DNA of 29,685 bases. It comes from a virus. This document shows positions 8,154-25,151 of this stretch, one piece after another (position 1 is the stretch's first letter; the number at the start of each line of letters is the position of its first letter). The position numbers and the translations under genes are program-made. Location of the stretch: UHGV virus genome UHGV-0134783. One strand, written 5' to 3'. Below the pieces are notes generated by a model, which was not told the origin of the DNA, made no database searches, and was given only the letters and a program-made list of their open reading frames with translations.

Positions 8154-8160
8154 ACACTAT

Positions 8161-9513: not shown

Positions 9514-9565
9514 CACAACCCCCATTAAATATCAAACAATTACATTAAAACAAAAACAAATACGT

Positions 9566-9937
9566 TTACTCAGATTCGACAGGCCTACATATCAGCTCGA
9601 ACAGCGAATACACATCAAAACGTGCACCATCAACCAGCAAATCAGGACCAGTAGACCGTTTACAGTACACCACCGGATCACCATCAACCCCGTCAGCCAG
9701 AACAGCCTCAATACGACGCGCCAACGACATAGCACGATCCGGCGTATCAGAAAACACATTCACCCGCAAAAAAACACGCTCACGAACATGCAACTGCGGG
9801 CCACCATCCAACGCCAACCAAATCAGGTCACCGCCGAAATCGTCAGGCACCGTCCCTGTACACGGTATCCCAGACAGCCAGCCATCATCCTTGAGCACGC
9901 GTTTAGCCCACACACGCGGATCACCGTAAACAATCAC
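9566..9937 (-). CDS. head-tail joining protein (tail terminator-like position)
   Basis: 123 aa. GTG start overlapping the upstream stop (GTGA). Fourth of four small genes between the capsid and major tail genes. Confidence 0.6.
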   Translation of the reverse strand: MIVYGDPRVWAKRVLKDDGWLSGIPCTGTVPDDFGGDLIWLALDGGPQLHVRERVFLRVNVFSDTPDRAMSLARRIEAVLADGVDGDPVVYCKRSTGPDLLVDGARFDVYSLFELICRPVESE

Positions 9938-10224
9938 GAAGCCGCCCCAATCGACCGGGCCAGCGTGCCATGCTTCGCCTCAATACGCTTCCCGCCCTTA
10001 TAGGTGGTGCCAATCCTCGCCACAGCCTCGACACGGTGAACCTGCACCTCCGACGATAATCCGCCACGATACTGGGCCTTATCGAAAGAGTTACCGCCCA
10101 CATTCGCCGAGGCCGCACGCCTAACCCGCTCGCCACGCTCAGCCAACATAGCCTGAACCCCAGGGGACTTCAACACCTCACGAATACCCGGCAAGTTCAG
10201 CTTCACATTCACATCCTGAGCCAC
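9934..10224 (-). CDS. head-tail joining protein
   Basis: 96 aa, GTG start. Third small gene in the connector module. Confidence 0.6.
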   Translation of the reverse strand: MAQDVNVKLNLPGIREVLKSPGVQAMLAERGERVRRAASANVGGNSFDKAQYRGGLSSEVQVHRVEAVARIGTTYKGGKRIEAKHGTLARSIGAAS

Positions 10225-10230
10225 TACCCA

Positions 10231-10578
10231 TCAGCCCTTCTTACGCTTCACATTGATCTGCGTACCAGCATCCCAACCGGACATGGGGTGATGCCACACG
10301 ATAGGAGACCCGTCAGCCTCCCACACAACACCCCGGATACGCCACCTGCAACGATAATCAGCACCCACAACAGACTGCTTGAAAAGCATCGACCAATGCT
10401 CATAGTCAGAGTCACGCCCCGCGGCCTCATCCTCCTGCGAAACGGAAGCATAGATGGCCACGTTATGAAACACAGTCTCGACAGGCTTAGACCAGTCTTC
10501 CACCTTGTCGCCAAGATCATCGACACGAACAGTCGGTTGAAGCATCACAACCGTTTCACCATACGGAAAACTGGTCAT
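10231..10578 (-). CDS. head-tail adaptor / head closure protein
   Basis: ATG at 10578, one nt after the upstream TGA, with a GGGAG SD. The longer ORF reaching 10734 lies inside the upstream gene and is rejected. Confidence 0.6.
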   Translation of the reverse strand: MTSFPYGETVVMLQPTVRVDDLGDKVEDWSKPVETVFHNVAIYASVSQEDEAAGRDSDYEHWSMLFKQSVVGADYRCRWRIRGVVWEADGSPIVWHHPMSGWDAGTQINVKRKKG

Positions 10579-10579
10579 A

Positions 10580-11041
10580 TCATATCTCCCACAAAGGGCC
10601 AGCGTAGCCGTTAATATTCGACCCGCACGAGCAACCCTCACCCCACACCGTGGAACACACCTCAGAATGCACATATCGACCATTAATAGTTGGGGTAATA
10701 GTGAACGCTTTACCAGCCCCACCATCACCCTCACACAACTTCTTCAACGCAGCAATCTCAGAAGGCCACAACAAATTCGTGGGAGTATTCGACCGTGTAG
10801 TCTGAGCAAACGGGCCCGCAGACTCGTACTGCACCTGACCCGAAACCCCGGTATCATTCCAGCGCAACAGGGCCCTGCGCAGAATAGCCTTAGCGGCATC
10901 CTTATATTTGAAATCCGGTTTAGCGATACAGGGGGCGACACTGACAGCTACAGCCTCCACATCAGCGATCATCGCCTCAAGCTTCTCTCTAGGAATATCG
11001 GCGAAAGGCTCAATATCCTCAGGCTTCAAAATGATACCCAT
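10580..11041 (-). CDS. head-tail connector protein
   Basis: ATG at 11041 behind a GGGGGTGG SD. The ORF-track start at 11068 is a GTG with no SD. First gene after the major capsid gene. Confidence 0.65.
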   Translation of the reverse strand: MGIILKPEDIEPFADIPREKLEAMIADVEAVAVSVAPCIAKPDFKYKDAAKAILRRALLRWNDTGVSGQVQYESAGPFAQTTRSNTPTNLLWPSEIAALKKLCEGDGGAGKAFTITPTINGRYVHSEVCSTVWGEGCSCGSNINGYAGPLWEI

Positions 11042-11084
11042 CAACACCACCCCCTGCACACAGTACACATTCGCTTATCTTGTA

Positions 11085-12029
11085 TCAGTTACCAGCCGGA
11101 GGAGGAGTCGGTGCAGCCTTCTCCTTCACCACAGCAAACGAATCAAGCGACTCAATCGCAACATACAGCACAGCCTCGGCACGAACCATAACCTCATTAT
11201 GGCCCTTCAAGTCACGGCCAGTCTGATCCGGGTCACCATACTCGATCAGCTCGATCGGGAAGTTACGCTGGAACCCCCAATGAACACGAGAGAAATCACC
11301 AACAATAGCCTTAACACCAGAGGCAGGCGACATCTCCGGGGCACCCGAAACAGTCGAAGAAGCACCAACATTCAGCCCACGCCAATTATCCAAACCAGCA
11401 AACCCGGCGGCAGGATACATCGGCTGACCGGCAAGCGGAGACCCCTTCGGATACACCTCAGTAGACAGAGCAAACGAGAACGCCGGATCCAAAGCAACAC
11501 CGTTAGGAACCTGCAAACCAGCCCCAGCGATAAGGCCGACAGCCTTGACCAGATCAGCCGTAGCGGAATCGGTGGCATCAACCGTCTTCTTCGTCTTATC
11601 CAGCGACACCTTGACAGCCGCAGCAGGCTTCCCAGTGGCAGGATCAATACCGTGGAAAGCAATCAGATCCACGGCGCGACCAATCGAAGCACCCAAAGCG
11701 GGCGAAATCAGATCCTGCAAAACACCCAGACGGTAATCGGCGTCAGCCCACATAAACTCGTCGCTTACGCGCTGCTGAGTCACAACCTTGATAGGCTGCG
11801 CAGTAAACGCCGAAACATCAACCGAAGCGGAAGGCTTAACCTCACCCTCGCCAACAATCTTGGCGCGAGGAACACCAGAAAAAACGGCACCCTTAACAGG
11901 GCCGAAAATAGTCGGCTGCTCCGGCGAAAGCTTCGCCAAAACACCAGAATCGATAGCACGGTCACGAACCGCACCAATCATAGAACCAGGAAGCTCAAGC
12001 TTACCTGCAGAAAGAAAATCGTCAGCCAT
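11085..12029 (-). CDS. major capsid protein (HK97 fold)
   Basis: 314 aa. ATG with a strong TAGGAGA SD. Follows the scaffold gene. Sequence features typical of actinophage HK97-like capsid proteins. Confidence 0.85.
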   Translation of the reverse strand: MADDFLSAGKLELPGSMIGAVRDRAIDSGVLAKLSPEQPTIFGPVKGAVFSGVPRAKIVGEGEVKPSASVDVSAFTAQPIKVVTQQRVSDEFMWADADYRLGVLQDLISPALGASIGRAVDLIAFHGIDPATGKPAAAVKVSLDKTKKTVDATDSATADLVKAVGLIAGAGLQVPNGVALDPAFSFALSTEVYPKGSPLAGQPMYPAAGFAGLDNWRGLNVGASSTVSGAPEMSPASGVKAIVGDFSRVHWGFQRNFPIELIEYGDPDQTGRDLKGHNEVMVRAEAVLYVAIESLDSFAVVKEKAAPTPPPAGN

Positions 12030-12035
12030 CAGAAA

Positions 12036-12590
12036 TCATCTCCTAGAATTATTGACAAGAGCATCCACAAACGCGACACCCTCACGTCGTTTAACATCAT
12101 CAACGGGGGCACTCCCCGCAAGACGGCGCACACCCGCGCCACCACCACTATGGTCGATCAAACCCTTCAAAGCCTTAGCAGACTCCACCAATGCTTCACG
12201 ATCGCCACCGTGCAAGAAAGCGACCGCATCACCCGACAGGCCACACTCGGCAGCCACCTCACGCTTCACACCCTCAAGAACAAACCCATTAATCCGGTCT
12301 TCGAGTTCCTCATTCTTGCGGCGAAGATCATCAATCACAGACCCCGCATCACCATCCGAGGCGCGAAGCTTCTCCAACTCGGCGAAATTACTTTTAGCAC
12401 GAGACTCCCACTTACGGGCCTCAGCCTTCCAATCCGTGCCAGAAGAAGACTCCTCCTTCACGGAAACATCACCGGCATGATCATCGCCGGCAGCCTGCCC
12501 ATCCTTCACAACATCAACAACGTCTCCACCCTTTCCGGGCTCAACAGCATCATTGTCAACATTCTGTTCTTCAACTTTTTGATCGGCCAT
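12036..12590 (-). CDS. scaffolding protein
   Basis: 184 aa, highly acidic, predicted coiled coil (EELEDRINGFVLEGVKREVAAE). AAGGAG SD. Immediately upstream of the capsid gene. Confidence 0.75.
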   Translation of the reverse strand: MADQKVEEQNVDNDAVEPGKGGDVVDVVKDGQAAGDDHAGDVSVKEESSSGTDWKAEARKWESRAKSNFAELEKLRASDGDAGSVIDDLRRKNEELEDRINGFVLEGVKREVAAECGLSGDAVAFLHGGDREALVESAKALKGLIDHSGGGAGVRRLAGSAPVDDVKRREGVAFVDALVNNSRR

Positions 12591-12693
12591 AGCCTAACCC
12601 TATACTCCTTGCGGAAAACAACACAACATTGTTGACCCCCGTGCGGGAGACAACCCTGTGCACCGATAACCGGCGACACACAACCGGAAACCA

Positions 12694-13449
12694 TCATCTC
12701 ATGTCGCCAACAGTACGCATAGCCTTCAAAATATTGCCAGGCGACTGCTGCAACCCATGATCATCAACCCACTCACGAGCCTTCTCATACGTCCTCTGAT
12801 ACTCGGCATCAGCCCTATTCGGTTCCCAAGGGCCAACAACCTCAACCACCGTACACCCGCAATGATCATGATACTTCGAACCAAACGGACGCCTACCGGC
12901 ACGCTTATGACGCCGCGTATGACCAGTAGTAAGCGCCCGCTCCCTCGTCGTATAATCCGACCTCGTAGCCAACATGGCACAAAACGCGCACGGATCACCA
13001 TCAGTCACCCTGCGCCACGACCTACCCTGCGCACCCGCAGACCACTCAACCGTGTCACGGCCAGCATTCATCACAGCCCGATTAAAACCCGCCGCCATCG
13101 CACCAATCGTGTCATTCGCCCTATCCGGGTCACTCTTAAGAATCTTCATAGTCGAAAACGACCTAGCCAACGCGGCGGCAGCATCAAACTCGTCATACAC
13201 AATCAAACCAGGATCCACACCATTCAACCGGCGAAAATCCGACACAAACCTGGCAGCCAACGACGCCGAACCATCATGGCCGGCACGCTCCAACTCCCCA
13301 CACAAACGCACATACTGCGCATCTGTCATCTTCCCGGAATGCCACAAACGACCAAGCTCGGCATAATACCCAGCGTATTTCCCAGCAAACCTGACCGCCT
13401 CACGCTGATACTCAGTCGCAGCAAGCCTCGACGCAACACCCGAAGCCAT
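12694..13449 (-). CDS. head morphogenesis / minor capsid protein (MuF-like position)
   Basis: 251 aa, between the portal and scaffold genes. Cys cluster DPCAFCAML...HDHCGC. ATG at 13449. Confidence 0.55.
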   Translation of the reverse strand: MASGVASRLAATEYQREAVRFAGKYAGYYAELGRLWHSGKMTDAQYVRLCGELERAGHDGSASLAARFVSDFRRLNGVDPGLIVYDEFDAAAALARSFSTMKILKSDPDRANDTIGAMAAGFNRAVMNAGRDTVEWSAGAQGRSWRRVTDGDPCAFCAMLATRSDYTTRERALTTGHTRRHKRAGRRPFGSKYHDHCGCTVVEVVGPWEPNRADAEYQRTYEKAREWVDDHGLQQSPGNILKAMRTVGDMR

Positions 13450-13455
13450 CGCCTA

Positions 13456-14781
13456 TCAAACCTCGTTAGTTTGACGAGAAATAGCCCCAGCCAGCGCCGC
13501 CAACGGATCCGAAGACTCGGCACGATGACGCATCACAGCCTCAACCTGCACATCATCCAAACCCAACATCTCCAACACCGTCCGAGAATCCGCCGGCAAA
13601 ATACCGGCACCAACAAGCTTCGTCACAGCATCAGCCGTAGCCGCCCTGGTAGGCGTCGACGCATCACGCCAACGCAAACCAACATCACCAAAAAACGCGG
13701 CCTCATCAACACTCGAATCAAGCGCCCTGGCAGCCAAGAAACCAACCGACAGCCAGCCCTGACCAAACGACGTCTGCCTGCGTTCAGCACGCTTCACAAG
13801 CCGAGACTCCTCGGCAGCCAAAGCCTCCCCACTAGGCGGGTTAGACGTGATAAACCCGAAATAGCGTTCCGGAACAGCCGCCTCACCCGCAGTCAACTGC
13901 GCCAACAGCCTCATCTGATCCGAATACGGTGTAGGCGAATTGACAGGAAACGACCCCACATTCGGGGTATCACCGTCATCATCCTTATCCACAGCCCACA
14001 CAGAAGCCATCGACAGGACCCAGCCAGGCTGCGAAAACTCATCCGCGCTCACACCAGTCACCCAACGTTGAGGATACGCATAAAAATCACGATTCACAGA
14101 CTGCCCCAACAGTGTGCGAACAGCCTCATCAGTGTAAGCCCTAATAGACCTCGTAATCTCCGAACGCCCATCAATACGCGACGTCCTACGCCGATTCACA
14201 ATCGGCACCAACGGAACCGCCCCAAGCACATTCGGTATACGGCCCGTCTCAACCCACTCACGAGACCCACGCCGCTCCACCTGAACAATCACATCAGGCA
14301 ACAACAACTCAGCCTCAACAACCTCAGGATCACACGTCTGCTGCACCACCAAACCCGCATCCAAACGAGACCCATCAGCAGAAAACCGGCCAGTACAATT
14401 CTTCGGCGACTGCGGACGAACCAACACCGACCCATCATCCCGGGGAATAACAGCCACAAACGACAAACCAAAAATCAGTGCATCCAAATGCACATCACAC
14501 GACGCAGTAGCAAGCCGATTCGCAGCATACACACCATCCAGACCGTAGCCGTCACCATTAGTCCAGCCAAGCCAATCCAGACGCTCCTCCAAAGCATCCA
14601 CAGCAATACCAGGCCACGACACCACCGTCTGCACACGCTGCAACTCCGGCGGAATAGCCACCCCCAAATCACGCACCCGATTAGAGCCCTCATAGTAGCC
14701 CTCAATACGGCAATGCCACGAAGACAACCTTTGGATACGATCAAACATGCCCTCAATCAGAGCCAACTCATCCGAGTTCAT
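13456..14781 (-). CDS. portal protein
   Basis: 441 aa. ATGA overlap with the large terminase stop. Size and position are typical of SPP1-like portals. Confidence 0.85.
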   Translation of the reverse strand: MNSDELALIEGMFDRIQRLSSWHCRIEGYYEGSNRVRDLGVAIPPELQRVQTVVSWPGIAVDALEERLDWLGWTNGDGYGLDGVYAANRLATASCDVHLDALIFGLSFVAVIPRDDGSVLVRPQSPKNCTGRFSADGSRLDAGLVVQQTCDPEVVEAELLLPDVIVQVERRGSREWVETGRIPNVLGAVPLVPIVNRRRTSRIDGRSEITRSIRAYTDEAVRTLLGQSVNRDFYAYPQRWVTGVSADEFSQPGWVLSMASVWAVDKDDDGDTPNVGSFPVNSPTPYSDQMRLLAQLTAGEAAVPERYFGFITSNPPSGEALAAEESRLVKRAERRQTSFGQGWLSVGFLAARALDSSVDEAAFFGDVGLRWRDASTPTRAATADAVTKLVGAGILPADSRTVLEMLGLDDVQVEAVMRHRAESSDPLAALAGAISRQTNEV

Positions 14782-16289
14782 ACCACAGACACCCGCTTCC
14801 TACCAGACCGTTCACGCCGCCTAGCCTTCGCCATCTTCGCACCAAGATAAGCCAAAGACACAGCCTCCAAAGGAACCTCAGAACCATCCTTAAACGAGGA
14901 ACCCCAACCCCACGCAGAACCCTTCTTCTTCTGCACAGCCGACCTCACAGCAATATCCAACATGTCACGCCTCGAATCAGCCCTAGGGTGAGAAACCACA
15001 CCAGACCTTACACCCTCCAGGAACGCCTGACACGCCTCCACATACACCCCAGTATCAGCCACAATCACGCCACGACCCGGAACACCACGATCCGTCAACG
15101 CCTTCTGCAACAACACCGCACCAGACCCGGCAACCATGATCTTTTCAGTGTCACCCCAACGCAACGCCAACCAGTCAGCCAGCTGGCCCACACCATCAAC
15201 AATCGTGCCAGACAGGCCATCAATAACCTCAACATGAACCCCAGCATCAGTCTTGCCAGCACCAGCTAGCGCGACACGATCCCCCGAGCGAGAAAACGAG
15301 ACACCAAAAACCTTCCCGCCAACCAGAGCCGCCTCACCCACAGCCGACTGAACCCACTTATCGGCTGGTATCACCGACGAAGCAGACTGGCCACGATCCC
15401 ACCAGCCAAGCCGCTCCCGAGCAAACCCGGCCGCAGACATCGACTCATGCTCATCCGAGACTGTACCAAAATTCAGACGCCTACCCAGCGCAGGATTAGT
15501 ATCACCAGCCAACTTCCGCCACTGCCGCGACACATCATCCGGATCAGACTCGTCAGGAATCGAAAACTCCGTCCACGCAAACCTTTTACCACCCGACAAA
15601 GCCTGCCCACGCAAACGCAACACCACAGACCCGTCAGCCAACGGCCCAGGAGGAGTCCCCAAAAAAATCTGCTGAGGATCACCCGAAGGAGCCGCGCTCA
15701 CCGTAGGAAGCAAAGCCTCCAACTGCTCATCCGACAACTCCTGAGCCTCATCACACACCAAATCATCAACCGTAAACCCGCGAGCAGAACCCCGAGAACG
15801 GGCCACAAACTCAACCGAACCCCAACCCGGACAGCCACACTTACGCTCAAACGTGGCACAATCCGGATGATGCAACACAATAGCCTCCTGACCATTCGTC
15901 GCCCGAATCGACTTCACCATACGATACAAGTCAGGAAACTGCCGCTCATTCTCAAAAAACGACCTCAACCGCATAAACGCCTTACGAGCCGACTTCAACT
16001 CGTGAGCCGTATGCAAAATACGGCGACCCTGAATAGTCGCCTTAAACAACTCCACAACCTCCAAAATAGCATTCTTGCCATTCTGGCGAGGCACAAACAC
16101 CCCACACACACCCGAAGCAAGCCTGCCATTACCACCCACAGCAAGCCAATCATCCAACACCTGCTGCTGCCACGGATCAGGCGTCAACCCATAAGCCCTA
16201 CCAAGCTCACCCGCATCCCCGCCAGCAGACACCGAATACGCCGCAGCCACACGATGACGAGGCACCTGAGACCCAACAACACCAGACAC
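14778..16289 (-). CDS. terL: terminase large subunit
   Basis: 503 aa. Walker A VPRQNGKNAILEV and Walker B LVCDEAQEL in the N-terminal ATPase. C-terminal nuclease-like region. GTG start 4 nt after the small terminase TGA. Confidence 0.9.
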   Translation of the reverse strand: MSGVVGSQVPRHRVAAAYSVSAGGDAGELGRAYGLTPDPWQQQVLDDWLAVGGNGRLASGVCGVFVPRQNGKNAILEVVELFKATIQGRRILHTAHELKSARKAFMRLRSFFENERQFPDLYRMVKSIRATNGQEAIVLHHPDCATFERKCGCPGWGSVEFVARSRGSARGFTVDDLVCDEAQELSDEQLEALLPTVSAAPSGDPQQIFLGTPPGPLADGSVVLRLRGQALSGGKRFAWTEFSIPDESDPDDVSRQWRKLAGDTNPALGRRLNFGTVSDEHESMSAAGFARERLGWWDRGQSASSVIPADKWVQSAVGEAALVGGKVFGVSFSRSGDRVALAGAGKTDAGVHVEVIDGLSGTIVDGVGQLADWLALRWGDTEKIMVAGSGAVLLQKALTDRGVPGRGVIVADTGVYVEACQAFLEGVRSGVVSHPRADSRRDMLDIAVRSAVQKKKGSAWGWGSSFKDGSEVPLEAVSLAYLGAKMAKARRRERSGRKRVSVV

Positions 16290-16293
16290 CTAC

Positions 16294-16602
16294 TCAGGCC
16301 CCCCTACGCTTCCTATACCGGTCAATCATCGCCACCGCAGAACCCCCACCACGGCCACCAGACGCCACATCAACCGAATACCTATCCAACATGCCCATAA
16401 AAGCCTTCACATGAGCACGAAGCGAAGCCACCAAATCCGCGCGACCCTCACGCCACACCACATCATGAATCACCGCAGCATCCATAAGAAACAACCACTC
16501 CTCATCCGACACATACGGCGCGCGACTGTCCTCACCCCACACACGCCACCAACGACGCGTCTCCCCACACCAATCGTGTCCCTCAGGAAGCTCAGGCTGC
16601 AC
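16294..16602 (-). CDS. terS: terminase small subunit (start uncertain: longest ORF extends to GTG 16665, 2 nt from the cos site; GTG 16602 behind GGTGGTGAG preferred)
   Basis: First gene after the cos site and immediately before terL. The N-terminal extension KYLPFVVLSVCRLFVLVVSVV of the longest ORF is hydrophobic and lacks an SD. Confidence 0.55.
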   Translation of the reverse strand: MQPELPEGHDWCGETRRWWRVWGEDSRAPYVSDEEWLFLMDAAVIHDVVWREGRADLVASLRAHVKAFMGMLDRYSVDVASGGRGGGSAVAMIDRYRKRRGA

Positions 16603-16666
16603 AACACTCACCACCAACACAAAAAGTCGACAAACAGACAAAACCACAAAAGGGAGGTATTTCACT

Positions 16667-16677
16667 AAGCCGTACGA
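16667..16677. other. cos site: AAGCCGTACGA, the reverse complement of the 11-nt 3' cohesive-end sequence TCGTACGGCTT recalled for P. acnes phages; physical genome ends
   Basis: Exact 11-mer found precisely between the HNH endonuclease gene and the small terminase. Reverse complement of 16651-16666 gives AGTGAAATACCTCCC as the virion left-end sequence. Confidence 0.7.
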
Positions 16678-16728
16678 GGTCTTGCACGGGTGTGCAGGGG
16701 GTGGTCCCGGTGGGGGTTGGCGGGTTTT

Positions 16729-17031
16729 TCACCATGGAATCAATGTTTTTGTGGTTTGTTGTTGGAAACTAATGTTTGGTTCACTGCGATTGCCTTTGCT
16801 TCTGTTGCATGTTCTGCAGATGATTTGCCCGTTGTCGAGGGTGTTGAGTCCTCCGCGGCTGACGGGTGTGATGTGGTCGGCTTCGGGGCTGGTTGGCAGG
16901 TCGTGTGTGTCCCAGGCTATCTGGGCTCCGCAGAGTGGGCATTCGGTTTGGCCTTGCTTGCGTGCTTGGGTGATGAGTCTTGCCCGCCAGCGTCGGTGGG
17001 CTTGGCTGGCTGTGCGGTTGGTGCGTGCCAT
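16729..17031 (-). CDS. HNH endonuclease (packaging-associated, adjacent to cos)
   Basis: 100 aa. CPLCG...DHITPVSRGG...NGQIICRTCNRSKG is an HNH motif with a zinc-binding Cys pair. ATG at 17031. Ends 52 bp before cos. Confidence 0.85.
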   Translation of the reverse strand: MARTNRTASQAHRRWRARLITQARKQGQTECPLCGAQIAWDTHDLPTSPEADHITPVSRGGLNTLDNGQIICRTCNRSKGNRSEPNISFQQQTTKTLIPW

Positions 17032-17107
17032 GATGTGTCTGTTCCTCGCCTAGCCCTGTACTGGTCTTATTTGCCCCTCTAACGGCCTGGAATCGTCTGG
17101 GGGTATG

Positions 17108-17149
17108 AATACCCTACCGATGCCCTGCTGATCGATTCTGGGGGCTGTT
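17108..17149. promoter_or_regulatory. composite motif site A: TGGGGGTATGAATACC (17108-17123) + CTGATCGATTCT (17138-17149); 77-118 bp upstream of HNH on the minus strand
   Basis: The same two motifs recur at 18709-18743, with the ATCGAT-containing motif inverted, and in degenerate form at 19733-19754. Confidence 0.4.
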
Positions 17150-17559
17150 TTGTTCGTTTGAGGGGGTGTTCTGTTTGTGTCGGGGTGGTTGTTTTTTCCA
17201 CTACCCCCCGGCATGTGAGAAAGATCACATCGCCCCCCAGCTGTGTCAAAAGAGAAGGACACGGAAGAAAAATGGGGGTGGGTGTGTGTTCGCGTTTCAA
17301 GGCTTAGCGCCTAGCGCTGAAGTACACAGGCTAAGCGGGAACACCTTCAAAGTTTTTAAAGTCTTCTACATATAATATACACTTTAAGTCTTACCCGGTG
17401 TTAAGGGTGTTAGCGTGACACGCCGTACGCCTTCAGCCGAACACGCCAAGCATAAAAGGGACACGGGTGTAAGAGTGTGGGGAGTGTACAAACCGGGAGC
17501 GTGCGACCGGTGGTACACGAGACACACGGCGAAAGTCCATCGGCGCTGATGGTAAAAGG

Positions 17560-18050
17560 TTTCTCTTCTCCCCTGATGAAGAAAAGAAGAGAAGAGAGAA
17601 AGTACCAAAGAGAGTAGAGAAGTAAAGAAGTTAACCCTTTAACTCTTCTAAAACTTTTATAACTTATAAGCTTTAAGACTTATAGGTTATAATATTAAAG
17701 TTTAAGACTGATGGTTAATTTTAAGTACTTAAAGTCTTTAAAGTATCATAGTTACTTTAAGTGTTTAACTCTTTAAGTCTTAAACACTGATGTTAAGTTT
17801 ATATCCTTAAGCGCTAAGTCCTTAAGGTTTTATACTTAACTTAAGTGTTAAGGTTATATATTTACTTTAAGACTTTAAAGCTTTTATAGTAACTTAGATC
17901 CTTAAGGGCTAAGCCTTGAAGGTTTTAAAGTTACTATAAAGTACCTAAGACTGATGCCGAGCCCTTGAGGGGGCTCGGTGCTAAGCGTTAAGGTCTTAAG
18001 GGCTTAAGGGCTTAGCACTAAGCCTTGAGGCTTTTAAGTCTTTGGTAGAC
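17560..18050. repeat. AT-rich island densely packed with TTAAG / CTTAAG / TTTAAGACT / TTTAAGTCT short repeats (candidate replication origin / protein-binding array)
   Basis: Visibly far lower GC than the rest of the genome. TTAAG-type motifs occur every 10-20 bp. No credible ORFs. Confidence 0.6.
17961..17995. repeat. 35-bp direct repeat copy 1 with GC hairpin (CCGAGCCC-ttgagg-GGGCTCGG)
   Basis: CTGATGCCGAGCCCTTGAGGGGGCTCGGTGCTAAG. Near-identical copy at 18490-18523. Confidence 0.7.
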
Positions 18051-18489
18051 TGATGGATGTAAGGGTGAAAGCCGCGTCAGCGGATTTCGGCCTTGCGTCC
18101 AGCTGGCTACCTGTCCAGCCTATCATATGCCACCTGGGATGAGTCAAACTGGTGGATTTGGCTCTATAGGCGGGTTTGAGGGGTGTAAACGGGTGTTTTT
18201 GGTGGTAAAGGTCCAAAAATTAAACCTAAACTTTTCCTTAAATTTTCTTAGAGTCTTGTAACCTTTACAGGTGGTTAAGGCTGAAACCCCTAGCCAGAAC
18301 GGATTTCACCCCCGAACAGCTGTCACACTTTACTCCTGTGTCCTTTCCTAACACGCTAGGCCCATCAGTGCTGAGGGTGTTCCCTCAGGCTTTCGAGTAC
18401 TCGTCGCTGAGGCTCCTCGTACTCTCAAGCCTTCCCTGATGGCGTGTACCCCTTTCAGGGCTGTGCCTGATGAACTGAGCCTGCTCGGG

Positions 18490-18523
18490 CTGATGCCGAG
18501 CCCTTGAGGGGCTCGGTGCTAAG
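18490..18523. repeat. 34-bp direct repeat copy 2 with GC hairpin
   Basis: CTGATGCCGAGCCCTTGAGGGGCTCGGTGCTAAG, one G shorter in the loop than copy 1. Confidence 0.7.
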
Positions 18524-18708
18524 ACCTTAAGTACTTAAGTTAACCTTAAGGTGTGAAGGCTGATGTCCCCCCTTCTTTCTTTTACCGTGTCCTTCTTCCC
18601 CCCACGGTATCCAACACTGTCCACATAGTTGAGGCTTAGCTAACCAGGATAGGGGTTGATGATCTATGCCGAGATGGTTGATCGTGTATCGGGCTCTGGG
18701 ATGCGTCT

Positions 18709-18743
18709 AGAATCGATCAGAATTGCTTGGGGGTATGAATACC
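18709..18743. promoter_or_regulatory. composite motif site B: AGAATCGATCAG (18709-18720) + TGGGGGTATGAATACC (18728-18743), upstream of the early gene block
   Basis: Shares an identical 16-mer with site A plus the 12-mer in opposite orientation. Confidence 0.4.
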
Positions 18744-18865
18744 TAGCCCCCACCCTGTAAGGCGCTCCTAGGCGTACCCCTGAAGCTTTAAACGGCATTT
18801 CTGGGCTACACCCTTCATGCCAGATTGGAAGAGTGGCCTCGAGAGTGCACACTAAGCCAGGGGGA

Positions 18866-18881
18866 TGTGATACATCTCACA
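18866..18881. promoter_or_regulatory. TGTGA-N6-TCACA palindrome (CRP/GlxR-family binding-site consensus) ~180 bp upstream of the first early gene
   Basis: TGTGATACATCTCACA has perfect 5-bp arms. A TTGACA hexamer lies at 18987-18992. Confidence 0.3.
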
Positions 18882-19059
18882 CACCTAGATGATAGATCTT
18901 ATGTCTCAGCTCGGCGCCTTGACTCGCTAGATCATCTGTCACACCCGACACACCCCATGAAACGCTCAACCGGTTTGAGCGCAACCTTGACAGTGGGTCA
19001 CAGCCCACACACTCTAGAAACCACAACAACCCCCACAACCACCGAAAGGAACATCACTC

Positions 19060-19368
19060 ATGGATGGCACACTCATCACACCATCATTCACCAGCCTCTA
19101 TGGGCAGACAGAAATCGACCCGCTCAGCCTCCACAGCCTCACCGGAAACCATTCAGACGACATCGATCTCGATATGGTGCGCCGCATGTACCACGCTAAA
19201 GTACAAGAAGCCATACGACTCATCCGACCCCTGTGGACTGTCACCCGCGACAGCGCCGTATACGGAGACTGTGACTGGCGCCACCTATCCGAGAATGAGG
19301 CCGAGGAGCTCCACGATCTCATCGACATGATCGACGTAGACGCCATCCTCGCTGAAGCTATACGATAA
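19060..19368 (+). CDS. early protein, hypothetical (paralog of next gene)
   Basis: 102 aa, acidic. SD GAAAGGAAC 8 nt upstream of the ATG. Confidence 0.7.
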   Translation: MDGTLITPSFTSLYGQTEIDPLSLHSLTGNHSDDIDLDMVRRMYHAKVQEAIRLIRPLWTVTRDSAVYGDCDWRHLSENEAEELHDLIDMIDVDAILAEAIR

Positions 19369-19399
19369 AAACCATCCACACACCAGAAAGGAACCCGTC

Positions 19400-19711
19400 A
19401 TGCAAAAGATCGCCGACCACTTCACCCAGCTCTACAGCCCCGCCAGCTACGACTGCCCTGAGCCTTTCGACCTGACACGCCTCGAAAACCTCCCCTGCGA
19501 CCACATGGATTTTGAGGGCCTCGCCGAAACCTACCGGCAGCATGTGGAAGCCGAACTTCATAAGCTACGCCCCAACACGTTCATCGCCACCGATGGCACC
19601 GTGTTCAGCCATGACGAGTGGAAGCCACTCACCAGTGAGGAAGCCACGCAACTCTACTGGAACGTGACCCGCATCAATGTTGGCCAACTCCTCACCCTGT
19701 GTGCCCGATAA
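19400..19711 (+). CDS. early protein, hypothetical (paralog of previous gene)
   Basis: 103 aa. Same CCAGAAAGGAAC ribosome-binding context. Shares FTxLY, D..D......Y...V......LRP, T.D..V....W..L[ST]..EA..L and a C-terminal L....R with the 19060 gene. Confidence 0.7.
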   Translation: MQKIADHFTQLYSPASYDCPEPFDLTRLENLPCDHMDFEGLAETYRQHVEAELHKLRPNTFIATDGTVFSHDEWKPLTSEEATQLYWNVTRINVGQLLTLCAR

Positions 19712-19732
19712 GCCCCAGTCGCACACAATGAG

Positions 19733-19754
19733 CCTAGAATCGCCTAGAAATACC
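19733..19754. promoter_or_regulatory. degenerate third copy of composite motif (CCTAGAATCG + CCTAGAAATACC) in the intergenic region before the zinc-ribbon gene; TATAAT hexamer at 19816-19821
   Basis: Shares CTAGAATCG with site B and GAA(A)TACC with the 16-mer core. Confidence 0.3.
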
Positions 19755-19838
19755 TGACCTATATAGTTGTACCCCCAAGACTCGCAAGGCGCTAAAATGG
19801 CACTACAGGAAGTCTTATAATGGAAAATAGGAGCAATC

Positions 19839-20126
19839 ATGCAATGGACATGCCACAAGTGCGATAGCACAATCATCGGATACAAGCCAGAGCACTGCAC
19901 AATCTGCCACGAAACATTCACGAGTACCACCTCAGGCGACATGCACCGGGTAGGCGACCACGGGGTCAAGACAGGCCCCAATCGCCGCAGGTGCCTCACT
20001 ATCGACGAGATGGACGCCAAGGGCATGCAGCGCAACAAACTCGGATACTGGACCAGCGGTGGCACATCCTATTGGGCGAAAGAAGCCATCACCCCTAGCC
20101 ACACAAGAAACGCTCACAACATTTGA
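19839..20126 (+). CDS. zinc-ribbon protein (C-x2-C-x11-C-x2-C), hypothetical
   Basis: 95 aa. TAGGAG SD. CHKCDS...CTICHE. Confidence 0.65.
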   Translation: MQWTCHKCDSTIIGYKPEHCTICHETFTSTTSGDMHRVGDHGVKTGPNRRRCLTIDEMDAKGMQRNKLGYWTSGGTSYWAKEAITPSHTRNAHNI

Positions 20127-20209
20127 GCGACACCTTGACACAGGCCACCGCCCACACCATGATTAATCATGTCAGCAACGAACAACACCCCGGAAAGGGG
20201 ACAACAATC

Positions 20210-20743
20210 ATGAACAAGAAAACAGGCTACACCATCGCCGGCGCCACCATCGCCATCATCGCCGCAGCCTCCTTCCTCCCGGCACCCGACGATAATCCGC
20301 CACTCGCCTCACAGCCAGCACCACAGGCCACCACAGCCAACACTGAATGGACCCCCAAAACCGTCCAACAGCGCAAAGCCGAAAAGAAAGCCCGCCAGGC
20401 AGCCGCAGTCCGCTCCCTACAAGCCGAACAGGCCAAAACCCACAAGCAAGCCCAAACACGGGGTGAAGAAACCAGCAAGGGGCTGACCATGATCACCGCG
20501 GCACACGCCTGCAATGACAAGGCTGAGCAGATGGCTGCAGCACAGGGTGTCAAATGGAACGGCAACCCCGACATCGACCTCCAACTCCACAAAATTATTG
20601 GTAAAGACACCTTCTCCATCGTCTACGGCGCAACCGTCCGCCAGCCGGGAGCATCCAAACTCCCAGTCACCGTCCACTGCCTCGTCACCGGAACAGAAGA
20701 CCACCCGCACGTCACCGACCTCAACATCAACCCGCAACAGTAA
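20210..20743 (+). CDS. membrane-anchored protein (N-terminal signal-anchor, Gln/Lys/Ala-rich coiled segment, C-terminal domain), hypothetical
   Basis: ATG at 20210 behind a GGAAAGGGGA SD. The TTG 20123 start of the ORF track has no SD. Transmembrane segment YTIAGATIAIIAAASFLPA. Confidence 0.6.
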   Translation: MNKKTGYTIAGATIAIIAAASFLPAPDDNPPLASQPAPQATTANTEWTPKTVQQRKAEKKARQAAAVRSLQAEQAKTHKQAQTRGEETSKGLTMITAAHACNDKAEQMAAAQGVKWNGNPDIDLQLHKIIGKDTFSIVYGATVRQPGASKLPVTVHCLVTGTEDHPHVTDLNINPQQ

Positions 20744-20765
20744 CCCGCCAAGGAGCATCCCCGCT

Positions 20766-20993
20766 ATGCCTCTCCTCTCCCACTACGCTGTCACCACCGG
20801 ACTCGCCGACACGGCACACATTATTCACCACACCGGCGGCACACTACGCACAGCCACCGATATTGCCTCCCGCATCAACACCCTCAACCCAGACATTGAT
20901 CTCGACCACGAAATCCACCAACTGTTATCTATCGAAACCAACCTGTACAACATTTACAAAACCATCAACACCATTCTTCAGGAGCAAGCATGA
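20766..20993 (+). CDS. hypothetical protein
   Basis: 75 aa. ATG at 20766 with an AAGGAG SD. The upstream part of the ORF overlaps the previous gene out of frame. Confidence 0.55.
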   Translation: MPLLSHYAVTTGLADTAHIIHHTGGTLRTATDIASRINTLNPDIDLDHEIHQLLSIETNLYNIYKTINTILQEQA

Positions 20994-21190
20994 ACACACC
21001 CAACAACATTGAGCTACACAGCTACGAAACGTTCTTCACCACACTGGCATGGATACAGGGCGCCATCATCACATGGATGTACGCCACCGGCACCAGCCAC
21101 AAGGCAGCTCTCGCCATTATTGCCGCATGCGCCCTCACTATCCTCCTGGGTGCCTCAACCCTCACCTACCAGCCAAAAAACCACAAATGA
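20990..21190 (+). CDS. small two-helix membrane protein
   Basis: 66 aa. ATGA overlap with the previous stop. CAGGAGCAAGC SD. Hydrophobic helices WIQGAIITWMYA and AALAIIAACALTILLGA. Confidence 0.6.
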   Translation: MNTPNNIELHSYETFFTTLAWIQGAIITWMYATGTSHKAALAIIAACALTILLGASTLTYQPKNHK

Positions 21191-21270
21191 TCACAACACC
21201 CATCCTCATCGCGGAAACCCTCGCCATCATCATTCTCGCCGTAGCACTCGCCCACAACCCCAACCAGTAA
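21187..21270 (+). CDS. 27-aa single-helix membrane micro-protein (MITTPILIAETLAIIILAVALAHNPNQ)
   Basis: ATGA overlap with the preceding gene's stop, implying translational coupling. Entirely hydrophobic core. Small size gives lower confidence. Confidence 0.4.
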   Translation: MITTPILIAETLAIIILAVALAHNPNQ

Positions 21271-21295
21271 CCCCACACGTAAGGAGCACACACCC

Positions 21296-21655
21296 ATGGA
21301 TGAGCCCACCAGCATGTACACCGACCCTGACACTGGTGCCCGAAAAGAATTGAAACTTTGCAGGCTATCCCTCATCGACCCCGCAGCCTTGCACGATCTA
21401 GGCTCCGTGGCCGGATATGGTGCCACCAAATACGGCGACAACAACTGGACCGGCGGATACCCGTGGAGCTACAGTGTCGACGCCCTCTACCGGCACCTAC
21501 TATCATGGCAGCAAGGACGCAACCTCGATGATGAATCCGGGCTACCCCACCTGGCCCATGCTGCCTGGCACTGCCTAGCACTCCTCGCATACCAGCAACA
21601 CCACGCCGGCCAAGACACCCGCAACCCATGGAACACCCACAAAGGCGACAAGTAA
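21296..21655 (+). CDS. hypothetical protein (conserved phage domain, His/Trp-rich motifs)
   Basis: 119 aa. TAAGGAGCAC SD. GATKYGDNNWTGGYPWSY...LAHAAWHCLALLAY. Confidence 0.65.
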   Translation: MDEPTSMYTDPDTGARKELKLCRLSLIDPAALHDLGSVAGYGATKYGDNNWTGGYPWSYSVDALYRHLLSWQQGRNLDDESGLPHLAHAAWHCLALLAYQQHHAGQDTRNPWNTHKGDK

Positions 21656-22602
21656 TGCCTCTAGCACAATACCCGAAAACCATCGGCCATCCAGGCCACA
21701 TCTCCTACTCATCACTGTCACAGTGGGCCGAATGCGGAGAAAAATGGCGCCTTCAACACGGCTACCATGCCCAACGCCACACCTGGTACGCCACCATCGC
21801 CGGAAGCGCCATACACCACATCACCGAACAATACGACCTACACCTGTACAATCCCGCCGAATACCCTGCACTGCCAGACAAACTCGCATCCTTCAAAAAC
21901 ATTTTCGACACCCAAGTCGCCCTCGCCGAATCCGAAGGCACAGAAATCAAACCCTCCGGCAGAATATGCAAAAACATGTGCGAGTCGGGCGGGCCACACA
22001 AGAAAGACTACGACTGGTGGATGGTTTACGGCCCCACCTTTGTGGACCGGTGGAAAACATGGAGGCGCAACCACCCAGAATACATCACCGCTGTTATTGA
22101 CGGCCAGCCAGGCATCGAATACCCGGTAGAAACCACTCTCCAAGACGGCACCCAGATCGTTGGCTACATCGACCGCGTTTTCACCGACACCGACACCGGT
22201 GAAACCTTCATCCTCGACCTCAAAACCGGACGCCTACCCGCCGACAGCATGCAGCTGCACACCTATCGGTACATGCTCAACCAACACGGCAACGATGTGA
22301 CAAAAGGCATGTTTTGGACACCCGCCACCACCAAGGGAGACGAGCAATCAGTCGAGCAGGGCACAGCAACCGAACTCATTGATCTTGACAACAACACCTA
22401 CCGGCATGTATCATCCATGTACAGTCAAGCAATGAAAGGAATCAGTCAAGGCATCTTCGTACCCCACGTCACAGCACTCTGTAAAGGCTGCCCCGTCAAG
22501 GACGCCTGCTGGGCCGTCAACGGCAAAAACTCGTACAGATACCCGGTAGAAACCACCGTACAGCCACCCCAAACAGACAATAAAGAAAAGGAAAACAAGT
22601 GA
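21655..22602 (+). CDS. Cas4/RecB-like PD-(D/E)XK exonuclease with Fe-S cysteine cluster
   Basis: ATGA overlap at the start. N-terminal Cys (WAECGEKW), catalytic motif GYIDRV...ILDLKTG, a QLHTYRY motif, and a C-terminal C-x2-C-x5-C (CKGCPVKDAC). Confidence 0.8.
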   Translation: MPLAQYPKTIGHPGHISYSSLSQWAECGEKWRLQHGYHAQRHTWYATIAGSAIHHITEQYDLHLYNPAEYPALPDKLASFKNIFDTQVALAESEGTEIKPSGRICKNMCESGGPHKKDYDWWMVYGPTFVDRWKTWRRNHPEYITAVIDGQPGIEYPVETTLQDGTQIVGYIDRVFTDTDTGETFILDLKTGRLPADSMQLHTYRYMLNQHGNDVTKGMFWTPATTKGDEQSVEQGTATELIDLDNNTYRHVSSMYSQAMKGISQGIFVPHVTALCKGCPVKDACWAVNGKNSYRYPVETTVQPPQTDNKEKENK

Positions 22603-23009
22603 CAGAAGAGCACACCACAGACAATGATCGACTCACTATCACACTCAAATATGGTGGAGACTATGCTGCACCATGGACCGTCATTAGGGGAGACACAGCA
22701 GAGCAGACAAAACAGGCCATCATCGACCTGCTAGGAGGATTGAAAGACGAAACCGTATCGAAAGACTGGGATCTTGCAACACTCGTAGCGAGCGCATCCA
22801 TCATCCTCCAAGACCGATACAATCATGCCACCAAAGACTACGTAAACAAAATCGCCAATCAGGAAAACGACATCATCATTGACCGGATCAACAAAGCCAC
22901 CAGCAAAGCACAGCTAGCAGACCTTCTAAAACAGTACAAAAAGATCATCACCAGCAATAGCGACGTGTCAGAGGCTTTCCGCACTAAACGAAACAGCCTC
23001 ACCCGATAA
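22599..23009 (+). CDS. hypothetical protein
   Basis: 136 aa. GTGA overlap start with an AAGGAAAACAA SD. Confidence 0.55.
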   Translation: MTEEHTTDNDRLTITLKYGGDYAAPWTVIRGDTAEQTKQAIIDLLGGLKDETVSKDWDLATLVASASIILQDRYNHATKDYVNKIANQENDIIIDRINKATSKAQLADLLKQYKKIITSNSDVSEAFRTKRNSLTR

Positions 23010-23059
23010 ACCAATATAAGCCAACAATAACAGACACAACAGTAAAGGATAACACCATT

Positions 23060-23524
23060 ATGGGACTCGCCAACTACCGCAACAGCAATAACAGCACCTT
23101 CTTCAATCCGTCCAAAAACCAGGACGCCACCGCCATCGCCTTCAAAGTGCACGACGTGGAACACAACACTGAAGGCTACGGTGGACAGACCGCAGACCGC
23201 ATCTACGCTGATGTCACAATCTTCCACACCCTAGACGATCTCAACAACGGTACCCCAGAAACCATCCCCAACGCTATTATTGAGAAAGCCCGCGGCAACA
23301 ACGACCGCCCACACTCCATGATCCGCGAACTCGAAGCATACCTTGGCGAGGAGCAAGCATTCAAACTCGCCACAGTGCGCACCAAAAACGGGTTCAACGC
23401 CGTCATCCTCAAACCATTGGACGACGCCATCTACGATAAGGTTGCCGAATACGTAGACAAGCGCGATAACGGCCAGCTAGACGACACCACAGCCTCTACT
23501 GACATCGATATCGACTCCATCTGA
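23060..23524 (+). CDS. hypothetical acidic protein
   Basis: 154 aa. AAAGGATAACACC SD. Confidence 0.65.
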   Translation: MGLANYRNSNNSTFFNPSKNQDATAIAFKVHDVEHNTEGYGGQTADRIYADVTIFHTLDDLNNGTPETIPNAIIEKARGNNDRPHSMIRELEAYLGEEQAFKLATVRTKNGFNAVILKPLDDAIYDKVAEYVDKRDNGQLDDTTASTDIDIDSI

Positions 23525-23570
23525 CCACCAAAACATCATCCAACCGATAGACAGATAGATTAAGGCTCCG

Positions 23571-24434
23571 ATGCTCTCTCTACAACGATCCTTCGAGAGG
23601 GCCTCCCAAACAGCCGCCGAGCTGCCCCGCATACCCCAGCTAGAACCCCTCTACCGCAACCTGGACATGCACATCCACAAAGGGGATTTGGTGATGATTG
23701 CGGGGCGCTCCGGCAGCCAAAAATCCGGGCTAGCAATGTTCATCACAGCAATGCTCAACCAGCCCGCCCTCTACATATCAGGGGACATGACACCCTGGGA
23801 GGCCTCCACACGAATCATCTCCCTCAACACCCAACACACCACCCAGCAAATACAACAAAACATCGACGACTACGGGCCAGAATACTATCGAGACAGCATC
23901 CACCACGGCGGACACATCACATTCTCATTCCAGTCGCCCATCACATGGACAGACATCACCATGGAATTGCAAGCCTACATGGAAATGTGGAACACCTTCC
24001 CACCACTCATTGTTATCGACAACCTGATGGACATTCAAGACTGCGAATCAGACTACCAGGCCCAGCAAGAAGCCATGCAATGGATCACAGCATTGGGTAG
24101 GGATACTGGCTCCACTATTATTGTCACACACCACGCAACCGACAAAACCGGAACCGACATCGAACACCCGCCAGCACGCAGGGAAATCAAAAACGGGCTC
24201 TCCGAAAAACCACAACTCATCCTCGGAGTCTCATTGTATGGTGGCGAGGATAATGGCAACGGGCTCACTATAACGGCAGAGGCTCGCATCGCCGTGCTCA
24301 AACAGCGCACCGGCAAATCCAGCCCCGACGGCACCCGATACGAGCGGCTACGAGCCTACCCCGAATACACATTCTTCGGACCCCTCGTCGAAAAACAGCC
24401 ATGGAACATGACCACAACACACAAAGGACTATGA
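23571..24434 (+). CDS. DnaB-like replicative helicase (C-terminal RecA-fold ATPase domain only)
   Basis: Walker A GDLVMIAGRSGSQKSG. Walker B LIVIDNLMD. 287 aa. Confidence 0.8.
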   Translation: MLSLQRSFERASQTAAELPRIPQLEPLYRNLDMHIHKGDLVMIAGRSGSQKSGLAMFITAMLNQPALYISGDMTPWEASTRIISLNTQHTTQQIQQNIDDYGPEYYRDSIHHGGHITFSFQSPITWTDITMELQAYMEMWNTFPPLIVIDNLMDIQDCESDYQAQQEAMQWITALGRDTGSTIIVTHHATDKTGTDIEHPPARREIKNGLSEKPQLILGVSLYGGEDNGNGLTITAEARIAVLKQRTGKSSPDGTRYERLRAYPEYTFFGPLVEKQPWNMTTTHKGL

Positions 24435-24790
24435 TGGCTTCACAGCAGGCACGCAACCGGCGGGCCGGAGCCGAATGGGAAACAAGACTCCTCCACCAGC
24501 TACGCAACACCGGTTACGACATCGAACGCCTCCACCTCAACGGTCAAGAGGACGAGGGAGACCTGATCCTCAAAACCGGCAACAAAACCTATGTGATCGA
24601 AGCCAAAGCCGGACAGCCACACCTAGCCCAATTCGTGAAACAAGCCAGCCGGGAGGCACGCAACTACGAAACACACCGAAACAAACAAAACAATTCCACC
24701 ATCGGACTCGTAGTGATGAAACAGCGCAACAAGCCATGGAGCGAAGCCTATGTGGTATCAACCCTCAACGAGCTCCTCCCACACCTCTGA
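24431..24790 (+). CDS. Holliday-junction resolvase-like PD-(D/E)XK nuclease (Hjc-like)
   Basis: ATGA overlap. GAEWETRLL..L...GYDIERL....EDEGDLILK...KTYVIEAKAG matches the E-D-ExK pattern. Confidence 0.7.
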   Translation: MMASQQARNRRAGAEWETRLLHQLRNTGYDIERLHLNGQEDEGDLILKTGNKTYVIEAKAGQPHLAQFVKQASREARNYETHRNKQNNSTIGLVVMKQRNKPWSEAYVVSTLNELLPHL

Positions 24791-25151
24791 CACCTGCCGC
24801 CTCCTCGACACCTACCGGATACGGTACAATCCGTCCCGAAACGAGCAACACATCCTCTGCCCGTTCCACGACGACCACCAGCCCTCCATGAGCATCAACC
24901 TCGACAAGGGCGTCTGGTACTGCCACACATGCGGTGTCGGAGGCGGACTCGCCAAACTACAACAACGATTAGAAGAAGAAAACCCGAATGTACGACAGCA
25001 TACGCCCATACAACATTGCGGAACGCCGCCGAATCCAGAAAGCCTCGGCCCTCTACGAAACCCACCTCGAAAACATACTCGACCTCCTCTCAGCAAGAGG
25101 CATCAGCGAAGAAACAGCCCGCTACCACCACCTTGGATACATCGACAATGA
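24750..25151 (+). CDS. DNA primase N-terminal zinc-binding (CHC2) module; ORF continues out of frame over primase core
   Basis: CPFHDDHQPSMSINLDKGVWYCHTCGVGG. GGAGCGAAG SD. After about residue 80 the ORF becomes Pro/Arg-rich junk that overlaps the next gene. Confidence 0.6.
   Translation: MWYQPSTSSSHTSDTCRLLDTYRIRYNPSRNEQHILCPFHDDHQPSMSINLDKGVWYCHTCGVGGGLAKLQQRLEEENPNVRQHTPIQHCGTPPNPESLGPLRNPPRKHTRPPLSKRHQRRNSPLPPPWIHRQ

Follow-up and report, generated by a model that had tools for sequence, protein, structure and literature searches.

Orientation-independent strand asymmetry in a Cutibacterium acnes phage genome switches at cos and is mirrored in the adjoining HNH gene unit

The window analysed here is the whole of the virus genome UHGV-0134783, a stretch of 29,685 nucleotides (nt), which is a complete genome of a Pahexavirus (the siphophages of Cutibacterium acnes), circularly permuted and reverse-complemented, with the cohesive-end site (cos) in its middle; the strand called “top” in the packaged genome, as usually oriented, is the minus strand of the window. 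The plus strand carries more C than G and more A than T in both gene arms, irrespective of the strand on which the genes lie, the bias flips at cos, and a unit of about 0.5 kb beyond cos, holding a gene for a predicted HNH endonuclease, has the mirror-image composition and the mirror-image substitution regime. Marinelli et al. 2012 (mBio, PMC3448167) had reported that the GC skew of P. acnes phages is independent of the coding strand and switches in the noncoding region at the genome's right end, attributing the skew to replication and suggesting an origin in that region, and a literature search found no later work on the skew of these phages. The asymmetry of the window is far beyond chance, but the core observation and its replication interpretation were already published in 2012 and the present work is mainly a rediscovery of them.

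Within either arm, every 1-kb window has a plus-strand GC skew of -0.18 to -0.40 and an AT skew of +0.18 to +0.47, in agreement with what the initial annotation of this DNA had claimed for the plus strand. Totals are -0.310 (GC) and +0.310 (AT) for the late arm (399-16665), whose genes lie on the minus strand, and -0.262 and +0.367 for positions 19000-29587 of the early arm (18951-29587), whose genes lie on the plus strand, with the sign the same in both arms per gene as well as overall, as in replication-type asymmetry. The coding strand is accordingly G/T-rich in the late arm and C/A-rich in the early arm, so an enrichment of coding strands in G and T, as transcription-associated asymmetry would give in every unit, is found for the late genes and is reversed in all early genes and in the HNH gene. 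The bias peaks at third codon positions, where the skew reaches 0.5-0.9: on the coding strand, late genes have third-position GC skews of +0.27 to +0.74 and AT skews of -0.58 to -0.95, and early genes -0.42 to -0.89 and 0 to +0.75 (leaving aside two doubtful open reading frames (ORFs), 18825-19199 and 24475-24891). Late-gene codons therefore end in G or T (C:T = 206:692 in NNY codons, A:G = 71:548 in NNR codons; GGT 291, GCT 256, GTG 324, TCT 150) and early-gene codons in C or A (C:T = 651:117, A:G = 345:136; ACC 178, CAC 130, GCC 139, ACA 109), again as first described, down to the example codons named. Intergenic DNA has the same plus-strand bias, with GC -0.34 and AT +0.32 in the late arm and GC -0.31 and AT +0.38 in the early arm. 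The strong bias is lineage-specific and is no general property of actinophages, because phages L5 (two-armed) and G4 have GC skews of at most 0.02 over their main gene blocks; the unskewed G4 was dropped as a two-armed comparator, being mostly unidirectional.

The switch coincides with cos. An 11-nt 3' overhang, TCGTACGGCTT, was reported for Pahexavirus KIT08 by PhageTerm (PMC12426086), and it has a single exact occurrence in the window, at 16667-16677 on the minus strand. The composition flips within about 25 nt of this site, the keto-minus-amino count per 100 nt going from -30 to +44 across it, and positions 16666-16728 have a GC skew of +0.46 and an AT skew of -0.45. Strong G/T richness of the plus strand extends over 16678-17200 (GC +0.261, AT -0.553), which comprises, all referred to the minus strand, the noncoding tail between the HNH stop and cos (16678-16728), the HNH gene (16729-17031) and some 170 nt of its leader or promoter-proximal region (17032-17200), where keto-minus-amino counts are still +26 and +48 per 100 nt. 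The large noncoding region that follows (17201-18950), published as the putative origin, has skews close to zero (GC +0.048, AT -0.035), G being in slight excess to about 18250, and strong C/A richness of the plus strand returns at about 18950. It is dense in palindromes and in inverted and direct repeats and has an AT-rich core at 17600-18000 with 25% GC. The abrupt switch at cos proposed initially, with its sharp skew discontinuity near 16.7 kb, was thus borne out. The reversed segment had been drawn as 16678-18300 and is strongly reversed to 17200 only, the remainder being near neutral; and in place of a second switch at about 18.3-18.7 kb (with a discontinuity at 18.5 kb) there is a broad neutral zone of 1.7 kb from 17.2 to 18.95 kb.

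The minus-strand ORF at 16729-17031 matches the HNH domain (Pfam PF01844, E = 2e-11), and its end is separated from cos by 51 nt and from the start of the small terminase ORF by about 60 nt, so that it is an HNH-domain protein beside cos and the terminase genes, with a putative nuclease or packaging activity. Although oriented like the late genes, it has the C/A-ending codons of the early genes, just as the initial annotation had it: its codon endings are C:T = 17:1 and A:G = 13:2, its 33 four-fold sites hold 0 T, 16 C, 16 A and 1 G, and its endings differ from those of the late genes (p = 3e-10 and 1e-10) and not from those of the early genes (p = 0.50 and 0.25). Coding third positions have a GC skew of -0.67 and an AT skew of +0.75, and all 78 of 78 related genomes show the same (GC -0.56 to -0.82, AT +0.57 to +1.0). 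A plus-strand ORF antisense to HNH (16690-17082) was considered as a real gene homologous to an opposite-strand gene of a sister phage described below, and was rejected, having no Pfam match and no similarity to it. A derivation of the HNH unit from the first part of the early arm, by duplication in inverted orientation, was likewise considered and rejected, since only short motifs are common to the two (69% column identity, few blocks) and the first early ORFs are without an HNH domain.

Substitutions were counted in 60-80 related genomes, from two sets of 80 IMG/VR loci aligned to the window, one set covering HNH and its surroundings and the other the large terminase gene and its surroundings. 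A change was assigned to a terminal branch when a genome differed from its nearest neighbour at ≤3% divergence and that neighbour agreed with the next three nearest; a second, frequency-weighted measure took the mean frequency of non-consensus alleles. At late-gene third positions, read on the minus strand, terminal-branch rates are 0.0248 for C>T against 0.0033 for G>A and 0.0234 for A>G against 0.0064 for T>C. Since the fluxes between C and T are balanced (135:132), and T/(T+C) is predicted at 0.79 and observed at 0.78, the third positions of late genes have reached the equilibrium of a deamination-type process with strong strand asymmetry. Frequency-weighted values on the minus strand are C>T 0.132, G>A 0.024, A>G 0.131 and T>C 0.049 for the late arm and C>T 0.095, G>A 0.049, A>G 0.210 and T>C 0.055 for the early arm, whose asymmetry index is +1.17 (confidence interval (CI) 0.86 to 1.49). 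On one and the same physical strand, A>G is about 3-fold higher than T>C in the late and in the early arm alike, and the skew at synonymous and intergenic sites is matched by complementary-asymmetric substitutions, the match for C>T being weaker in the early arm (terminal-branch C>T excess 1.1-fold there, 7.5-fold in the late arm). This upholds the strand-specific, deamination-type mutational bias that had been proposed, with C>T and A>G favoured on the minus strand in both arms. The four observed ratios are fitted by a four-equation model in which a strand mutation bias acts together with a preference, independent of orientation, for codons ending in C or G; its two independent estimates of the preference difference, from codon-ending counts, are 0.29 and 0.32.

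In the HNH unit the regime is mirrored. Its third positions have frequency-weighted C>T of 0.026 and A>G of 0.035, against the 0.132 and 0.131 of late genes on the same strand; non-consensus frequency exceeds 0.1 at 4 of 54 sites in HNH and at 179 of 459 in late genes (p = 7e-7); and terminal-branch C>T changes number 3, compared to 11.7 expected at the late-gene rate (p = 0.003). The C and A sites of HNH are 4-5 times more stable than those of neighbouring late genes, and its unstable sites are G and T. On the minus strand of the leader (17032-17200), G>A is 0.135 against C>T of 0.041 and T>C is 0.166 against A>G of 0.072. The asymmetry index of the unit is -2.61 (CI -3.76 to -1.31), that of the tail (16678-16728) is -3.5 and that of the noncoding region (17201-18950) is -0.26 (CI -0.82 to 0.36). 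The reversed composition is thus actively maintained and is not fading, and it is therefore not the relic of an inversion. A historical inversion of this segment, which the initial annotation had offered as one explanation, or its acquisition from an other-strand context without re-equilibration since, is accordingly very improbable. Rare third-position variants in HNH do mostly leave C and A (C>T 27 against T>C 0; A>G 15 against G>A 2), and terminal-branch counts in the same directions are 6 against 0; however, when alleles at ≤10% frequency were polarised as “derived”, apparent decay from the common bases appeared in every gene class because of saturation and mis-polarisation, and that polarisation was rejected. 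The regime at 16678-17200 does not decay toward the genome-wide bias, the reversal is present and extreme in every one of the 78 genomes, and four contigs from related phages or prophages carry HNH orthologs of 51-59% identity, upstream of their terminase genes and with orientation unchanged.

One of these relatives separates the bias from coding orientation. The sister phage is a 34.6-kb ENA contig (ERZ27231526 k141_76143, stretches 1-15814 and 12593-33612, reversed) of 52% GC, with the same two-armed layout, a large terminase (TerL) 71% identical and an HNH protein 58% identical to those of the window. About 55-65 nt past its HNH stop there is a cos-like site that aligns with the cos of Pahexavirus, and between this site and the small terminase gene lie two genes on the opposite strand, one weakly PAPS-reductase-like. 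Its top-strand G/T-rich domain begins at the cos-like site and takes in both opposite-strand genes (top-strand third positions GC +0.40 to +0.51, AT -0.62 to -0.70) along with the late arm, fading about 1 kb past the convergent junction; its early arm is weakly skewed and its HNH gene is neutral. Because the domain starts at the cos-like site and spans genes of the opposite strand, the bias belongs to a physical domain anchored at cos and not to coding orientation, and such a domain starts at cos in both lineages. A gap of about 320 nt at the end of the sister-phage domain was tried as a clean boundary and rejected, as it appears to hold an uncalled ORF. More distant relatives with 64-66% GC are without strong skew, which places the rise of the bias in the low-GC Cutibacterium phage lineage. 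In an unskewed relative of 66% GC (L169), the HNH ortholog (5132-5425) has third-position skews of -0.69 (GC) and +0.77 (AT), unlike its neighbours, and the gene before it (3657-4427) is likewise extreme in its C/A endings (-0.53 and +0.88). The metagenome-assembled contig of another relative (L170) has AGTGAAAT as its very first bases, the sequence found just after the cos overhang in the window, which is consistent with a conserved physical genome end. The sister lineage carries pentapeptide-repeat proteins in its early arm, and the sister phage is not among the best matches listed in the phage collection.

An excess of C>T and A>G on one strand is the signature of single-strand exposure, as on bacterial lagging-strand templates and on the displaced strand of mitochondrial DNA, and by the standard sign rule the strand running 5' to 3' with the fork is G/T-rich. 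Applied to the skew of the window, this rule would give cos the polarity of an origin-type switch and the noncoding zone that of a terminus-type switch, the reverse of the published reading. We infer from these signs that single-strand exposure is the cause, that it comes from replication rather than from transcription, and that the fork leaves cos toward the terminase genes. The late-sense strand (minus in the window, top in the packaged genome) gains C>T and A>G faster than its complement, which renders it G/T-rich over about 27 kb whatever the orientation of the genes, and hence late codons end in G or T and early codons in C or A, with a weaker orientation-independent preference for C- and G-ending codons superimposed. 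That strand would be repeatedly single-stranded during a unidirectional process starting at cos and moving in the direction of late transcription and packaging, most probably unidirectional replication of a rolling-circle or sigma type, or nick-primed strand displacement, in which a host polymerase would act with the phage DnaB-like helicase and primase. The exposing process would leave cos by way of the terminase genes, traverse the late arm and go on antisense along the early arm, and would run the opposite way in the HNH unit, which would be a separate small domain across cos with its bias on the opposite strand; synthesis would diverge at cos and end in the repeat-rich noncoding region. 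We give about an even chance to unidirectional replication anchored at cos being the cause of the asymmetry.

Several observations weigh against replication of this kind. A fork rounding the circle should cross the HNH unit with the same bias, so that the mirrored 0.5 kb needs an extra assumption, and this mirrored stretch ends inward at about 17200, in the region where the HNH promoter probably lies. Over the 1.7 kb of noncoding DNA the skew is neutral, with no sharp switch. In the early arm, terminal-branch C>T is about equal to G>A (0.0084 against 0.0075) and minus-strand G/(G+A) is 0.90 where 0.66 is predicted, and for these reasons mutation alone is insufficient to explain the early genes. 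Third-position keto skew does become weaker farther from the left cos end (rho -0.60, p = 8.5e-5), and within the early arm (rho -0.51, p = 0.036), but this gradient is confounded with arm identity and is not significant within the late arm. The weakly skewed early arm of the sister phage and the end of its domain past the junction look more like a transcript boundary than a replication domain. Among 10 early-arm proteins scanned there was no rolling-circle (HUH) initiator and no polymerase, and a literature search for origin mapping of these phages found nothing beyond Marinelli et al. A tentative and rather doubtful form of replication from cos is that staggered nicks or annealed but unsealed ends at cos prime outward synthesis both ways, long-range via the terminase genes and for about 0.5 kb into HNH, with the published “origin” being where synthesis ends.

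Transcription could give much of the same pattern and is a possible, if unlikely, cause. Long, abundant late transcripts from near cos, reading antisense through the early arm to about 18950, would expose the minus strand over 27 kb, and dominant transcription inward from the right genome end, antisense to HNH, would mirror the unit. The domain of the sister phage, which crosses two opposite-strand genes from the cos-like site and ends like a leaky transcript, agrees with this, as do the neutrality of the untranscribed noncoding region, a skew that weakens as the early arm nears its promoter-proximal end and the fact that the mirrored domain coincides with the transcription unit of HNH, and the larger C>T excess in the late arm indicates that a transcription-oriented component exists. 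However, the 3-fold A>G excess falls on one and the same physical strand in the late and the early arm; the model has to postulate a strong transcript, absent from annotation, that runs antisense to HNH; scans for promoters and terminators near cos, in the noncoding region and at the arm junctions gave counts at shuffle expectation; a literature search found no transcript data for these phages; and phages with all genes on one heavily transcribed strand are not known to reach skews of 0.3. Selection by expression class, in which early-type messages including that of HNH are kept C/A-rich and late messages G/U-rich for reasons of translation, RNA structure or termination, with strand as a by-product, seems to us improbable. 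It gains from the likeness of HNH to the early genes in both coding-strand composition and substitution dynamics, from a 16-nt motif that HNH shares with the early operon (below) and from the early arm having more C-ending codons than mutation rates predict. Against this, the two classes are exact complements (keto and amino), as strand-specific deamination-type bias predicts, and we know of no translational preference that does; late third positions sit at their neutral mutational equilibrium and intergenic DNA has the same bias; the switch at cos falls mid-way in what would be a single HNH-terminase message of the circular form; and the sister phage, with its neutral HNH ortholog, needs at least three ad hoc classes.

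The motif in question, the near-palindromic 16-mer TGGGGGTATGAATACC, has exactly two copies in the genome, one in the HNH leader (17098-17113) and one upstream of the first early genes (18728-18743, within a plus-strand element at 18709-18743 that also holds AGAATCGATCAG); at ≤3 mismatches there are 3 matches, a number reached in 0 of 100 shuffles. Neighbouring motifs, AGAATCGATCAG and CCGTGTCCTTCT, pair in the same register (17117-17139 with 18709-18731, and 17253-17282 with 18567-18596), so that the two groups form a mirror-image pair about 70-115 nt upstream of HNH and of the first early ORF, which looks like a shared operator or promoter for two divergent units. Elsewhere in the noncoding region, two near-identical elements of about 34 nt (17951-17985 and 18490-18523), 539 nt apart and one with an extra G, carry the GC hairpin CTGATGCCGAGCCCTTGAGGGGCTCGGTGCTAAG, and 17600-18050 holds many degenerate direct and inverted repeats of the CTTAAG or TTTAAGACTTA type, with GC down to 25%, which look like iterons or a protein-binding array. 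An Rfam scan of 16400-19400 gave sub-threshold chance matches only.

The identity of the window rests on the matches of its records, on the cos sequence and on the joining of its ends. A 6-kb query around cos and the HNH unit returned 232 phage records, all of them Propionibacterium or Cutibacterium acnes phages, the best nucleotide match having 90.5% identity over 99% of the query, and the final and the initial 400 bases of the window form one unbroken alignment to a related genome, inside its holin gene. The ends of the window (1-241 and 29672-29685) split this gene, as circular permutation and not an end-to-end linear genome would have it. A genome of about 29-30 kb, identity to members, two convergent arms and the 11-nt 3' cos are all as in Pahexavirus. 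On the top strand, cos is followed by the small terminase gene (16294-16665, minus; Pfam Terminase_7), the large terminase gene (14778-16289, minus) and the structural and lysis genes to position 399, among them portal, capsid and tail genes, as delimited by ORFs and by the annotated relative CAP_10-3; then come the convergent early genes, the noncoding region, HNH and cos again. Early-arm products, assigned by PHROGs and by the source names of homologs, include a dNTP pyrophosphohydrolase-like protein, a RecB-like exonuclease, a DnaB-like helicase, a primase and an Mre11-like exonuclease, together with others. The plus-strand ORFs 18825-19199 and 24475-24891 are without the third-position signal that marks the rest of the early genes (GC3 about -0.2, gc3 0.40-0.46) and may be wrong frames or non-genes; the annotation of this area in relatives differs. 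One related record (OR039357.1) gives product names implausible for their position, such as a succinate dehydrogenase subunit and a histidine kinase, and names a second “HNH endonuclease”; the corresponding ORFs of the window, the first of the early arm, are without an HNH domain. Long plus-strand ORFs at 12757-14850 (697 amino acids), 10908-12635 (575) and 5178-6287 (369) lie antisense to portal, capsid and tape-measure genes, a trap for gene callers that is likely due to the plus strand having only 16% T, which makes stop codons rare.

Comparable asymmetries are known elsewhere. In bacterial chromosomes, a replication-associated asymmetry with G over C and T over A on the leading strand was reportedly described by Lobry in 1996; the phage bias shares with it the independence from orientation, the strength at synonymous sites and the C>T deamination signature, but is several-fold larger (0.3 overall and 0.5-0.9 at third positions), holds on one strand over about 92% of the circle instead of in two equal replichores, and has switch points only 0.5-2.3 kb apart. 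Vertebrate mitochondrial DNA has an asymmetry between its heavy and light strands, replicates by strand displacement and gains C>T and A>G on the displaced strand. The phage resembles it in the very strong whole-strand keto/amino asymmetry, in the same two transitions and in a hint of a distance gradient, although it is a double-stranded DNA tailed phage with cos ends, strand displacement in it is only proposed, and its gradient is weak and confounded with arm identity. Transcription-associated mutational asymmetry raises C>T on the non-template strand, and the late genes have the polarity expected from it, with a C>T excess that is larger where the exposed strand is the coding strand; relative to the way they are themselves transcribed, early genes and HNH show the reverse polarity. 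Finally, Kala et al. are said to have described in 2014 the HNH-terminase cos packaging module of HK97-like phages, which the window resembles in having a small HNH gene, of putative function, at the right genome end, adjoining cos, upstream of the terminase genes and oriented like them. A role of phage HNH proteins in packaging is stated in PMC5304195; the compositional reversal of HNH is not predicted by that literature.

Closest of all is the study of Marinelli et al., which concerns the same phage group and makes the same observation, its authors having come to the replication reading independently. It deals with GC skew alone and calls the switch an origin, leaving undiscussed AT skew, the endings of codons, HNH itself, the second switch, which lies at cos, the spectra of substitutions and the sign that the switch has, whereas in the window the strong reversal is the HNH unit and the noncoding region is near neutral. 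Beyond the 2012 work, the present analysis adds the detail of AT skew and codon usage, the exact switch at cos, the limitation of the strong reversal to the HNH unit, the substitution evidence, the rejection of an inversion and the argument from polarity, which calls the published origin into question; the actively maintained mirror bias of the HNH unit is without published explanation.

C. acnes phages are candidates for phage therapy of acne, and their skew is the only published clue to their replication origin. The bias dictates codon choice, to the extent that late genes almost never use A-ending codons, and gives rise to long antisense ORFs that are spurious and may misguide annotation. 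Natural experiments for separating replication-driven from transcription-driven mutation are available in the HNH unit and the sister phage. If the argument from polarity is true, the published origin would be a terminus-type switch and cos the start point, and if outward priming at cos is also true, the packaging site would double as the start of replication and a double-stranded DNA tailed phage would pass through a long-lived single-strand phase like that of the mitochondrion.

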